From assembly GCA_964016885.1 (NCBI GenBank), contig OZ024741.1, positions 123,504,001 through 123,568,000 of the forward strand: 64,000 nt of DNA, written 5' to 3'. This document shows, piece after piece, positions 949 to 55,431 of this stretch. Numbering within the stretch: the stretch's first letter is position 1; the number at the start of each line of letters is the position of its first letter. The stretch is from Eledone cirrhosa (Eukaryota). Position numbers and translations under genes: made by a program. Below the pieces are notes generated by a model. It was not told the DNA's origin and did no database searches. It saw nothing but the letters and a program-made list of their open reading frames with translations.

Positions 949-1533
949 ATATATATATATATATATATATATATATATATATATATATATATATATATAT
1001 ATATATATATGTATTTTTTCTCGCGAGTCAGTTCTTTCGTTGTTACGGACTCCGCGGCTGAACTACCGGTCGCTATCTTCAATTTGCAAAGCTCTTTAAA
1101 CTGTATGTTATTACTCTGAGATTGTATACCTAGTCGAGTACTTGTCTGCACTTCTGAGTGTATTCGTCGGCTTAGCTGCGGCTCGAGCTTCGAATATGCT
1201 GTACTTCCATTTGTATATATATATATATATATATATATATACATATATATATATATACGCATATATATATATGTATATATATATATATATATATATATAT
1301 ATATATATATATATATATATATATATATATATATTGTTATACTTGGGAAGGTCATATTTGTGTAATAATATTGCCAGAATTAATAACAGAACACACTCAC
1401 TGTTTGGTTGGTTTTCGCTTCTGTATCTTTTATATCGGTTAATTTAATTTATTCGGTCGTCAATGTTACCATTGACTGACCAACGGTCAAAAATACAGAT
1501 ACAATATAGACACAAACACATATATATAGTTTA

Positions 1534-1573
1534 ACAAAGTTCTTTCGTTGCACATCTGCAACATCATCTGTGG
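1534..1573 (-). ncRNA. Hammerhead-like fold with CAGATGA core in PLE 3' UTR
   Basis: CAGATGA-T-GTTGCA(GATG)TGCAAC-GAA-AGAACT-T-TG; stem I weak. Confidence 0.45.
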
Positions 1574-1856
1574 TGCTATTATGTTTCCTCCCGTTGTATT
1601 GTATGCCTATGCCATCTTTATTTAGTCTGTTTATTTATTTGTTTGTTTTTTGTCTTCTCTGCGCATGCGTTTGTGCGTGTGTATAGTGTTTTGTTTGCTG
1701 TGTGTTCGTGTTTGGGTGACTGTGTATTGGTTATTGTATTCTATCTTAGTTTACTAGTGTGTGTTTATATGTGTTTGTTGTTATTGTGCTGTGTAGGTAT
1801 TTATTTATTTATTTATACTTCTCTTAGGTCAGTGTTGTTTGTTTGGGTGTTGTTGT

Positions 1857-3269
1857 TATTCCATTCGTTTTTTTCTGTTTAGCCTTGGCCTTCTAAGTTC
1901 TATTTCGCTGGCCTCTCTGATTTGCCTATCTGCTGGGTCATTTCTATGTTTAGATATTATTCTAATTTCTATGTTGTCTATGTTACCATCATGTTGTTGT
2001 CTGGTATGTTCGTATAGTACTGAAGCGTTCGTTCGTCTTTAGTTCCCCCTAATGTTGGTCTATCCTTTCACCTATGCTACAAGCTGTCTCGCCTATGTAT
2101 GTTGTTGTCATTTTTCTGCAACTACCCTCTGTACATCTTATACTATAGACTACGTTTCTAGTTTTACAGTTTCATCGGGGGTTTACTTTACATATAATAC
2201 ATTTCCTATTAGTACAGTGGATTTTTTCTTAAAAGGGTAGGTTTTGCTGATCAGGGATTTTATGGTGGTACCTGGCTTTTCTGCCACCTTAATCTATAAG
2301 TGGGTCTTTCTCAGGGCCTTTCTACACTGGTTAGCTAATTTCCCTCCAGGGGTAGCGTCCACAAACATGACACTCTGGTATCTCTGGTTGTTGTACCATG
2401 AGCTGGCTTTCCCTATCTTATGTCTAGTCCTATCTAAGCTATTCCATGATTTGCTCCTGTGTAATGGGCAAATTATTTTCATGTCCAGTTCTATGAGGGT
2501 CTTATACTTCTCCGTGGCTCCTTCGTATACACTAATTCTGACTCTTTGGTTGTAGCCAGATAACTGCATGCCGTTGATGAAGTGTTGGATGTGTCTTTCC
2601 ATTTCTGTTGGGTCGCACATACGGGACACGTTCTTCATCACTCGTACCAAGTCTGCGATCCGAATATTAAACTTAGCACTACTGGACATTGCTGAGTTTT
2701 TGAGTATCAGGTATTTGGAGGCCATGGGTTTAGCATAGTCTGAGTGGAGAATTTGGGCTCTCTCGTCTATAGTGTTAATCCAGAGTTCCGTGTCTAATAC
2801 AGGTAGTCTATTGTTAGGGTGTTTGGAAGGGTAGTCGATAGTTACAGTTATACTCTGGTGTATGGAATTAGCTATCTGCTGGATGTTTTCCATTGTGCTA
2901 CGTTCTAAACCAAACTTGTTAGTACTCTCTTGTGGGGATGTACTTATTACTATATTGATGTTGTCTACGTAACGAGAGTAGATGATGAGGTCTATGGAGC
3001 TCTCATCAAGGAGAACTTTGAGTCTCCTTTTCCACCATACCATAAAAATGTTGGCAACGTCACCAGCAATGCTGACGCCAATGGTTGCTCCCTCATTTTG
3101 GGTATAGATCTTCTTGTTGAATTTGAATATGTGGCCCTTTAGGGTAGTTTTGATACAAGCCCCTATTGCATGTGCGACCATTTTTCTTACCTGATCATTG
3201 TTTTTGGGGTTCCGTATAGCTTTGGTCCACCCTATCCACCTTCCCATGAGAGTCTCTTTTGACATTGAA
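1857..3269 (-). pseudogene. PLE reverse transcriptase and GIY-YIG endonuclease, disrupted
   Basis: ORF motifs YTQNEGATIG, YSRYVDN (YxDD decayed), LPVLD, YAKPMAS; manual translation past the stop gives CTNRKCIIC..CKTRNVVYSIRC...TYIGETA..R..QH and RQIREASEI..PRLNRK with stops and frameshifts. Confidence 0.9.
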
Positions 3270-3561
3270 GTTATTAATTCTGGCAATATTATTACACAAA
3301 TATGACCCTCCCCAAGTATAACAATATTTGTTTCGTCACACGATATCATATCAAAATCCTCGCAAACTAATTCATCGCCGTTATATATATATATATATAT
3401 ATATATATATATGCATATATATGTATATATGCATATATATATATATATATACATATATGCATTTATAAATATATATATATATATATATATATATATATGC
3501 ATATATGTGTTTTATATATATATGCATATATATGTATATATATATGCATATATATGTATAT

Positions 3562-52700: not shown

Positions 52701-53639
52701 TATTATTATTATTATTTTTTGTTTTTGATATTGTTATTAATATATTGAAATCTGTCCTCTATTTCTGCTTGATAGATAATCATGTAGAGTAAAGACAAGA
52801 ATAGTATTGTTAAAAATAATATAGACTCTCTATATATGTGTATATATACACATATATGTATACTTAAATTTTTATAGCACAATGAGAATGTTCTCCGTGT
52901 GAAATAGGGGTTTGCAGAGTTGATCACGTAAATTCACATCGATGTTTGTAGTTATCATATAAACATATGAATTTTTAAAACTAGACATAAGATCATTACT
53001 TTTCACACATTATAGATACGTGTCTCATTCAGGAATACTGATATTTACATTATAGTGCCTGGTTTTTATACGAACTAATATTTCTACATTAAAACATAGG
53101 GTTTTTAAATTCAGCCTCGCCTATGTCTGGTTACTTTTCATTTTTCTCTCTATATAACGGCTGGTTTCTTTCCTAACCACTTATATCTCCCTTACATTAA
53201 TACTAGAGCTAAATAAATAAATAAATAAATAAATAAATGTATCATTGATACGTCGTTCAACTACCTACTTTTCTCTATATATATATATCTCTATCTATTT
53301 CCTCTGTCTATATATCTCTCTCTGTTTCTTTACATGAAGTTCTTCTCTTTATCTATCTTTCCATCTCTCTATTTTGTTGCATGCATTTCTTCTTTTTCTT
53401 CGTTTTCTTTCTTTTTTTCCTTCTTTCTTTCTTTCTGTTTACAATTTTTCACTGCCAAATCAACTTTTTCAAATACAAGTCGATGTTGAACGGTATGTCA
53501 AATCTATTTATCTATAAAACTGTCTATATTGTATTTTGTCTGAAGAAGGCATAACATATTGTTAATATGATATCCCTGAAATATATATAATGAAATAAAT
53601 ATGGTTTTATAAATATAGTTTCCATTTATTTAATATCGT
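49752..53639 (-). mobile_element. 5'-truncated Naiad-like PLE with ~1.15-kb inverted repeat
   Basis: Arms 49840-51028 / 52501-53639, tail 49752-49839, RT/EN remnant in the spacer; hammerheads at 49882-49947 (-) and 53532-53597 (+). Confidence 0.92.
51333..52497 (-). pseudogene. PLE RT C-terminal half plus GIY-YIG endonuclease
   Basis: IYRDD...VNFLDITLNL...SNHP; RNIIWFAPPFS; CNCRDRSKCPL (CxCx5C); IIYNC...YVGSTSTEFKLRYNNH...LNLR...CKH; frameshift and stop present. Confidence 0.92.
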
Positions 53640-53827
53640 GTATATATATATATATATATATATATATATATATATATATATATATATATATATATATATA
53701 TATATATATATATATATATATATATATATATATATATATATATATATATATATATATATATATATATATATATATATATATATATATATATATATATATT
53801 CTATATCTATGCACTCATATATGTGAA

Positions 53828-54042
53828 GGCGCGTGGCTGAGTGGTTAGATTCGAAATCGTTAGGTTGTGAGTTCCATTCCCGGACCGGGTGATGCATTGT
53901 GTCTTTGAGCAAGACACTTTATTTCACGTTGCTCTTTCTACCTGGATTTGTGACCGACAGATAGTATCAGCAATTAGAAAGACCAATGGAAACATTGTTT
54001 CCTCGGTTCAATTTGACGAAAGTCTATCCATTGTCGATACTT
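53828..54042 (+). mobile_element. tRNA-derived SINE family B
   Basis: A-box TGGCTGAGTGG, B-box-like GTTCCATTCC, core GTGTCTTTGAGCAAGACAC. Confidence 0.85.
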
Positions 54043-55209
54043 GTATATACCTCACAACATACACTTTAACATTTATTTAACTCCTTGAAATTACATAACA
54101 TGACGTAGTTAAATTATGCTGTTATTAACTTGTTAATACGCACTTATATATTGTGCAATGTGCACACATATTTTGCAATATTAACTTACAAATCTTACAA
54201 TTCATATATTTGTAATATGCATACGTCTGTGTTTTAATGAGCACTTATAGAACTTGCAATAACCACATTCAATTTACGATATGAAAATTAAAATAAATAA
54301 ATTTAAAAACTATGAAAGCGTTCCTCACTACATACAAATTGAATTTTTCATGATAGGTGCTCCAGTCATATCGTAAAATTCAATGGGAACTGAAGCATCA
54401 GCCAATAATGGAATGAAATCGTCAACATGATCCTGAAACCAACACTATCCACATCATTCTTGGAAAATAAGTATCAAAATGAAGGCATAATCATTACATA
54501 ATGTACATGTTTATGAAAATGAGGGTGAATTTCATTTGGTGTGTCAGGGTTAGGATTAATTAATACAGCCATAGGAATGAATGAAACGAATCTGTTTTTA
54601 TTTCGCACTTAATTGCGCTACATAATCTACACTTTGGAATTAGAAGTGATCTGCCGAGCTAAGAGAAATATGTAAACAAGTACATTCATAAAACACTGGC
54701 GTAAATATAAATACTATGTTATTGACATTTAAGTGTCATTATTACCAGTGGGTAATTACTGGCCTTGTGCCAAAAGTAGAAACAATTATTACCAGGAAGC
54801 AGTTATTTCTTCAACATTTGGGTTGACCGGTAGACCGTAAATGGTTGATAGTACGCATCTTTTAGATTCTTTCCTTCTTTTACTGATTTCAATCATTAGA
54901 TAGTGGCCATGCTAGGATGCAAACTTGATTATTTTGATATTATCTACGCACGTAGTTATTATACAAGTTTGGTACTTGTTGTATCAAAGCCTGTTTTTGC
55001 AAACAGCAAAGTTAGTATGGTATATGAACACGACACACATACGGATACATATAAACAAATATATATTCCAAAATGATTGACTTAATACACACATTCTTCT
55101 TCTCAAAAATAGGTTTCCGTTCCTTTCTCCTCTCACACTCTGCCTTTCTATATCATTTTACTTTTTTTTTTATTGCAGTTTAAGCTTTGCATATATATAT
55201 ATATATAAA

Positions 55210-55431
55210 TATAACAAAGGAATTGTGGTAAGGAACCAGATGGATCATAACGCACCAGAGTACTCAATACTTAGGGTAGTAGAGTGGGAAATAGGAAAAA
55301 TTATGACCCCGACGGCAGAGCTCAAGCCATTTCGACGGCTATTTCTGGACTAAATTAAAAATTACAATTTAGTCCAGCAATAGCCGTCGAAACGGCTTGA
55401 GCTCTGCCGTCGGGGTCATACTTTTTCCTAT
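55210..55431. mobile_element. Mini PLE foldback with the 3' half of a hammerhead
   Basis: Arms 55291-55356 / 55366-55431, tail 55210-55290; GAA-ACGGC...GCCGT-C-GGGGTC. Confidence 0.75.

Follow-up and report, generated by a model that had tools for sequence, protein, structure and literature searches.

Paired tailed and tailless ends of Penelope-like element insertions in Eledone cirrhosa: probable twin priming at two internal sites of one RNA

Background

Several features of the insertions left by Penelope-like elements (PLEs) have already been published: inverted pseudo-long terminal repeats (pLTRs), a tail at one end, (TA)n targets and two internal start sites of reverse transcription (PMC3846280, PMC8557442, PMC2377424 and PMC11167929, in the parts considered here). 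We consider how these features fit together in a 64-kb stretch of AT-rich animal DNA from Eledone cirrhosa (contig OZ024741.1, positions 123,504,001 to 123,568,000, in an assembly of 3.0 Gb). This whole stretch, 18% of which is (TA)n, is called the window below. Comparison of the window with itself, microsatellites masked, reveals many inverted pairs, short and long, flanked by (TA)n. Two-armed PLE insertions, in the window and in samples from elsewhere in the assembly, nearly always pair one tailed end with one tailless end, and twin priming on one RNA is a probable reason.

In the Hydra clade, as set out by Craig et al. (2021, PMC8557442), the targets are (TA)n and a tail of 30-40 bp is 'often' found at one end. 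Our elements resemble the elements of that account in having a C-terminal endonuclease (EN), RWR/RWK and DKT motifs, a CxCX5C linker, a unit of ~3 kb and (TA)n targets. A partial tandem together with an inverted copy and a tail at one end is another shared trait, seen here in the locus L321. They differ from it in the length of the tails (50-134 nt here), in the strictness of end pairing (~96%) and in a duplicated stem that marks both ends.

PAc, the Poseidon element of Anolis (Frangieh et al. 2024, PMC11167929), acts on both strands in vitro, cutting and extending each, and has been modelled as a dimer. Two internal start sites of its reverse transcriptase (RT) bound the tail, the start lies in a stem-loop, and the target is AT-rich. 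Two internal start sites bounding a tail, as well as an AT-rich target, are found here too. The relevant parts of that paper, in contrast, report no difference in start site between the strands and propose neither a coupling of the sites nor a route to inverted copies; the genomic pairs described below require the two sites to be coupled.

For Adineta vaga and the Penelope of Drosophila virilis, inverted pLTRs, of which one may bear a tail, and a 34-bp repeat at the start of the open reading frame (ORF) have been described (PMC3846280, PMC2377424). Inverted pLTRs with a tail on one recur here; an earlier note on this window had remarked that they were known for Penelope, and PMC3846280 agrees. 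Unlike here, the palindromes in that work were put down to self-priming on antisense RNA, and end pairs are untabulated in the portions considered. In LINE-1, twin priming produces ~20% of insertions, one primer using the poly(A) end, with a median overlap of 12 bp (PMC12016303, in part). What we describe is like it in that two DNA ends would prime opposite cDNAs on one RNA and leave an internal junction. It is unlike it in being the main outcome among paired ends, in that both sites are fixed and internal, and in an overlap that is usually tens to hundreds of nt.

We found no account of PLE twin priming, of end-pair counts, of a duplicated stem or of an extra G in the portions of the literature covered; supplements, Arkhipova 2006 and Pyatkov 2004 may contain part of it. 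The parts considered of bioRxiv 10.64898/2026.07.22.740005 and of PMC13282606 contain nothing on end pairing. How PLEs come to insert inverted and with a tail is a question that PMC8557442 poses as open and that PMC11167929 leaves without an answer, as far as those portions go.

One tailed and one tailless end

Judging by their sequence motifs, the elements in question are Hydra-type and Neptune-like PLEs, together with a possible tRNA-derived passenger. Below, P stands for the end without a tail, T for the end with one, and positions are counted from P. The rule that each insertion has one tail, put forward in the earlier note, has two-armed insertions as its scope. That note listed ten such insertions in the window with the side of the tail in each, and alignment of the two ends bears it out in all ten. 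Either one end overhangs the other by 51-133 nt or one of the pieces is tail only.

The F1 (Neptune-like) insertion at 1335-3381 consists of a long tailless arm on the minus strand, ending at 1335, and a short inverted tailed arm (3270-3381) with a 58-nt tail on the right. It holds a 5'-truncated RT fragment (2294-3381, minus strand) with a YSRYVD-like motif in its translation and no Pfam hit. The Hydra-type F2 insertion (3562-5138) has a short tailless arm on the left and a long plus-strand arm with a 133-nt tail on the right; a C-terminal endonuclease fragment in it (3803-4288, plus strand) is 38% identical to the EN region of the full-length F10 element in L321. Two insertions belong to F3, also Hydra-type. 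One (8566-9487) has its tailless arm on the left, a 90-nt tail on the right with an ACTC...GAGT stem just past the P site (9406-9425, plus strand), and hammerhead-like cores by pattern at 9300 (plus) and 8664 (minus). The other (49753-53640) has a long minus-strand arm with an 87-nt tail on the left (stem at 49814-49833, minus strand), a 1.19-kb tailless arm on the right and a broken RT/EN ORF (51333-52518).

The remaining six are shorter. The F4 palindrome (12940-13391) has a 55-nt tail on the left and hammerhead-like cores at 13144 (minus) and 13241 (plus). F5 is represented by a palindrome (38052-38251) with a 70-nt tail on the right and an ACTC...GAGT stem at 38186-38204, by a pair (49430-49593) with a short T arm on the right and a 72-nt tail, and by 41815-41910, where, as the note had said, the two pieces do not overlap: a P arm reaches to -55 and a tail-only piece starts at +48. 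The non-coding F7 palindrome (42822-43066) has a 51-nt tail on the left, and the Hydra-type F10 palindrome (55208-55428) an 86-nt tail on the left with a stem at 55262-55285 (minus strand).

Additional cases are two F1b insertions with the tail on the left, namely 9612-9758 (T piece left, P arm right) and the non-overlapping pair 42634-42701 (tail-only piece left, P arm right). There is also a non-overlapping pair of the Hydra-type F12 (46481-46578; P left, tail-only piece right), and an older F3 copy (30241-30494; P left) whose diverged T-like end on the right was recognized by eye at a weak score. All four agree with the rule, the last of them weakly. A second F4 copy (15397-15849) is a 99.8% duplicate of the first, part of an apparent local duplication and not an independent event. 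In the assembly the duplication is a tandem one (12133-14427 / 14428-16923), in which 453 and 436 nt of the unique DNA match at 99%, and it holds the F4 palindrome. No partner was found for the F3 tailless arm at 55517-55990 (minus strand). Two P ends, one of F4 and one of F12, point outward across 5882-8439. The exception named by the note is a true one: the F5 insertion at 62623-62706 combines a P arm with an arm halting ~24 nt short of P, and has no tail.

Outside the window we sampled seven 200-kb stretches, 1.4 Mb in total; the pairing counts refer to this sample and to targeted loci, not to the whole genome. In a partner-blind scan each end of a TA-bounded segment was classed separately (score of at least 16; 1,129 segments). 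Among the 74 segments with two same-family ends, 71 were PT, two TT and one PP (p=7e-18), where chance would give P with T in 50%. At a looser score the PT/TT/PP counts were 75/3/1 and at a tighter one 59/2/1. Two fixed 3' endpoints matched one to one in opposite orientation, as the earlier note predicted, are thus seen in 71 of the 74, and the tail/tail and tailless/tailless pairs on which it staked the idea are few.

Other counts agree. BLAST pairing over sample and window (n=112) gave 99 P/T, 1 P*/T, 2 T/T, 3 P/P* and 7 with a mid-position end, and 89 of 101 rows from targeted loci (duplicates included) were P/T. Of the F10 loci picked solely by an upstream anchor, all 13 distinct resolved ones were P/T (hand count; other loci were unresolved). 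The 3' ends are bimodal in eight reference families in the sample, the tail lies about equally often on the left (94) and on the right (87), and same-family pairs outnumber cross-family ones 84 to 3. A family-blind scan of 26 inverted segments from unassigned families found 13 one-sided overhangs, 8 segments flush at both ends and 5 others; the eight flush ones look, by sequence, like DNA elements with terminal inverted repeats and were counted neither for nor against the rule. BLAST left 125 P or T ends unpaired: 89 are unresolved, 23 run straight into TA (some via a tiny partner end), 9 have a short complementary same-family end and 4 meet an end of another family. The rule is real and general within this known class of elements.

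Pure TA runs, with a median of 24-28 nt, adjoin all but 9 of the 213 paired ends with a microsatellite, and any target-site duplication would be hidden in (TA)n. One sample (G000:C5:60000001-60200000, L111-L130) contains no (TA)6 array in its 200 kb, unlike the six others. For the locus L209 no empty allele was seen.

Two internal sites and their stems

The earlier note placed one of the two primers at the end of the RNA. In tandem copies of six families (F1, F2, F3, F7, F10 and F12), T continues into element sequence, in most of them with TA-like letters first, and in the Hydra families the read-through reaches the ORF 50-100 nt later. The RNA therefore does not end where the tail does, and both sites are internal, unlike in the LINE-1 type, where the RNA 3' end primes one of the cDNAs.

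An RCTC...GAGY stem begins 6-11 nt past P and again past T, at 8/8 sites in F2, F3, F10 and F12, with a background of 0.4-0.6% of positions. The outer pair of the stem is complementary at all eight (three A-T, five G-C). The offset is near-fixed across most tails of F2, F3, F5, F10 and F12, and in F5 the stem is also found past P. Seven of eight tails of copies found blind have it, one with the double change GTTC/GAAC. It occurs twice upstream of another Hydra ORF; among nine ORF starts, five have both stems, one the T-side stem alone and three none.

A probable mechanism

We consider it fairly probable that these insertions arise by twin priming, one RNA being primed at two internal sites that are marked by hairpins. 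Cutting within (TA)n would leave two 3' ends, and both would prime reverse transcription on one RNA, at P and at T, by annealing to two UA sites of an RNA that a dimer holds. Each of the two sites, in Hydra-type families, is a short UA-rich stretch 6-11 nt ahead of an RCUC/GAGY stem, and the two stems probably dock the two RT active sites, which would enforce one P and one T. Both cDNAs would then extend toward the RNA 5' end, many halting 55-190 nt upstream of P at what is probably a capped start (-57 in F10, -56 in F5 and -186 in F3). The P cDNA would lead; the T-primed one would trail, displacing the first or stopping early. Their 3' ends would be joined via 2-4 nt of microhomology, small inserts or a template jump. 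Long arms that go beyond one unit, as in L321, probably come from tandem read-through RNA or from a jump to a downstream repeat. Of the twin-priming route suggested in the earlier note, twin priming itself remains the best fit, while its priming at the RNA end gives way to two internal sites.

Arms, junctions and other explanations

The arm-length count covers 155 clean junctions, 26 of 181 P/T pairs being left out (a junction gap of more than 30 nt, or the F5 reference itself). The P arm reaches more than 10 nt further upstream in 72 and the T arm in 18; in 65 they end within 10 nt of each other, and in 19 pairs the arms do not overlap. The bias toward P is alike in old and young copies (14 vs 2 of 32 in the youngest class). 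Either arm may be the longer, as the note had observed: among 18 long insertions T is longer in 8 and P in 10.

These figures bear on the alternative that survives best, which we still regard as unlikely. A cDNA primed at T may fold back and copy itself, with EN resolving the product at P and asymmetry produced by later deletion in the palindrome; 'EN-mediated resolution' is suggested in the part of PMC8557442 considered here. Fold-back would explain the single tail of each insertion, the sharing of alleles described below and the 65 near-symmetric junctions, and some junctions do lie at self-complementary words such as GTAC and AGCT. It requires, however, that the P arm be contained in the T arm. 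That P so often reaches further upstream than T argues against a simple fold-back, and so do the 19 non-overlapping pairs, the lack of an age trend and P arms of 1.1-1.9 kb opposite T arms of ~100-280 nt. Where arms meet head to head and each carries an extra G, two run-offs would be needed.

Subfamily alleles are common to both arms in 39/39 cases in F10 (0.52 expected), in 28/28 and 29/29 in F3 and in 14/15 in F5. Together with the non-nested arms this is indirectly compatible with synthesis of both cDNAs from one RNA. It speaks against two ribonucleoproteins, or a dimer with two separate RNAs, in which asymmetry of the protein would assign P and T. Two RNAs would give overlapping arms without strand displacement, and a few cross-family chimeras exist, such as an F1 tail on an F10 palindrome. 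With alleles shared far above chance in F10, F3 and F5, and three cross-family pairs vs 84 same-family ones, we judge this somewhat less likely again than fold-back. The chimeras in which an F1 tail end is joined to F10 are found at C4:96930-97091 of the sample (within L100) and at L260, a hint that the template was switched from one PLE RNA to another.

The earlier note expected 5' breakpoints to be random. Instead, 66 of the 128 arms in four Hydra-type families begin within -2 to +12 of one A, which we take to be initiator-like. A G precedes this A in 11 of the 12 arms that start exactly there, vs 13 of 116 elsewhere. Genome-wide the place holds 4,360 G vs 744 A, and a control one base in holds 1,435 G vs 4,622 C+T. 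In held-out F3 loci G was present in both of two rows, the two arms of one junction. Copying of a cap can yield an extra G; we infer that the extra G is a copied cap and the start a capped start. A TCACT in the pLTR has been named Inr-like (PMC3846280, in part). RT stalling at a hairpin that lies immediately upstream of F10 -57 is another possible cause of the F10 peak. A ribozyme cut site as the cause of the breakpoint peak was rejected, since the peak lies upstream of the core. Exact breakpoints were obtained from 96 junctions. Among 52 young ones, 21 have microhomology of at least 2 nt and 23 have inserts; among the 29 insert-free young junctions such microhomology is seen in 21, vs a null of 19%.

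Head-to-head PLE junctions have been read in print as the outcome of self-priming, with a bidirectional pLTR promoter supplying the antisense transcript (PMC3846280, in the part considered), and palindromic copies could give such RNA. This reading predicts neither two fixed sense-strand 3' ends beside a UA stretch and a stem nor an extra G at the sense-strand initiator, and we consider it improbable. Least credible, and barely worth entertaining, is that the pairs are artefacts of the assembly or fragments bounded by (TA)n that were rearranged later: (TA)n is fragile and self-complementary and the window has TA-centred inverted flank copies, but the arms differ in sequence and end, each family keeps its ends fixed in all six chromosome samples, and short-read contigs contain many such inverted joints.

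The short inverted flank copies centred on (TA)n lie tail to tail at 8422-8533, 45297-45448 and 47364-47515, and also near L207 and L246, suggesting snap-back synthesis at TA breaks.

Several points weigh against twin priming as outlined here. The RCTC/GAGY stem was not found in F1/F1b, F4 and F7, which obey the rule nevertheless; therefore the stem is not its universal cause. The sample contains two TT segments and one PP among 74, as well as a symmetric T/T palindrome (L003), single-armed copies and tailless fold-backs such as 62623-62706. The path from P to the stop is shorter, and this alone would leave T arms truncated more often. Few alleles beyond a weak excess are shared by the arms in F1 (9/14), F7 (8/12) and F2 (4/8), and gene conversion could also be the source of allele sharing. 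The start site was chosen after the data had been seen, the prediction of a cap G, made beforehand, failed in the 30 F10 loci set aside for it (G in 2 of their 10 exact-start rows), and templating by the other arm may supply part of the genome-wide G. For these families the model is drawn solely from comparison of DNA sequences.

The elements

L321 contains a full F10 element with a 786-aa stop-free frame, RT-like motifs and a C-terminal YIG-type EN. It bears the marks of the Hydra clade, namely RWR, DKT, CNCPDRSIC (the CxCX5C linker), CNLC and CKH. Its layout is an inverted 830-nt arm, a truncated copy, a pLTR, the ORF and a pLTR; L322 is a tandem. The full-length Hydra-type element at L321:2879-5236 (G000:C1:11226000-11232300) has pLTRs 99.4% identical and is a young copy. 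The nearest Atlas clusters of the ORF, at 0.96-0.99, include GIY-YIG and RVT_1 families; neither Pfam nor a PDB sequence search gave a significant match, whether for fragments of these PLEs or for the complete ORF. F2, F3 and F12 have the same N-terminus as the L321 element. A second, different Hydra-type ORF fragment (L323:1618-3249, minus strand) is nested within an F10 insertion. Exact matches to one 34-nt word of F10 number 21,897.

In F1b a CIDKKCITC linker (CX4CxxC, within the CX2-5CxxC form of the Neptune and Nematis clades) is followed by a C-terminal EN (VYSIRC...YIGET...NEH). By this linker, together with a GIY-YIG at the C-terminus, F1 and F1b are probably Neptune-like, fitting either the Neptune or the Nematis clade. 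Naiad was tried for 1335-3381 and rejected because EN is C-terminal in F1b, as in F3 and F10, and not N-terminal as in Naiad.

The copies of F4, F5 and F7 in hand hold no ORF. Hammerhead-like CTGANGA...GAAA cores are predicted by pattern match in F3, F4 and F5; F10 has no clear core. Rfam returned no hammerhead for the window among the 150 of 653 matches listed, those being microsatellite-driven miRNA noise. DNA searches of the genome itself with the shared arms of F3 and F4 gave no candidates, and the evidence on F4 consists of few copies because of this. The tandem unit of F7, 262 nt long and non-coding, includes a 73-nt tRNA-Ser(GGA)-like gene in copies other than the palindrome of the window (L202:1702-1774). 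F7 obeys the rule, with P/T in 15 of 16 targeted rows, and is possibly a passenger of a PLE resembling a short interspersed element (SINE).

Other features of the window

An abundant SINE-like family occurs at 11350-11630, 36510-36960, 37490-37730, 43633-43846, 47231-47515, 59552-59753 and 61695-61817. At the 3' end it is similar to the tail end of F12 and likewise adjoins (TA)n, and in sample copies the F12 tail is fused to the 5' part of this family. A GIY-YIG fragment of another PLE family lies at 33821-34243 (minus strand; Pfam match, E=1.2e-06). A mariner-like transposase fragment with a weak HTH_32 match (56847-57729) has inverted ends between TA arrays. The ORF fragment beside a 200-N gap (18600-19560, minus strand) presumably belongs to a LINE-like element. 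A diverged inverted element with internal TA runs (45985-46425), which is like the flanks of L207, is probably a repeat of the DNA-transposon type. A CAC/AAC low-complexity repeat (58530-59500) yields a Thr-rich open frame.

Implications

Near-obligate pairing of P with T, a duplicated covarying hairpin and the pile-up at a start site make the mechanism testable by point mutation in an existing in vitro system. They also give curators the true boundaries of the elements and a source for the abundant short palindromes. A wider suggestion can be made, tentatively and with doubt slightly outweighing belief. Twin priming may be the normal insertion route of EN-bearing PLEs. Two tandem priming elements in the 5' leader, each a UA landing site with a hairpin, would seat the subunits of an RT-EN dimer, so that every cut in (TA)n would give one cDNA with a tail and one without. 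The cDNAs would leave the template at the cap, as strong-stop DNA does, and join head to head. If this is correct, both ends of an insertion would be made without a separate second-strand primer, and the tens of thousands of short palindromes in the genome would be its product.

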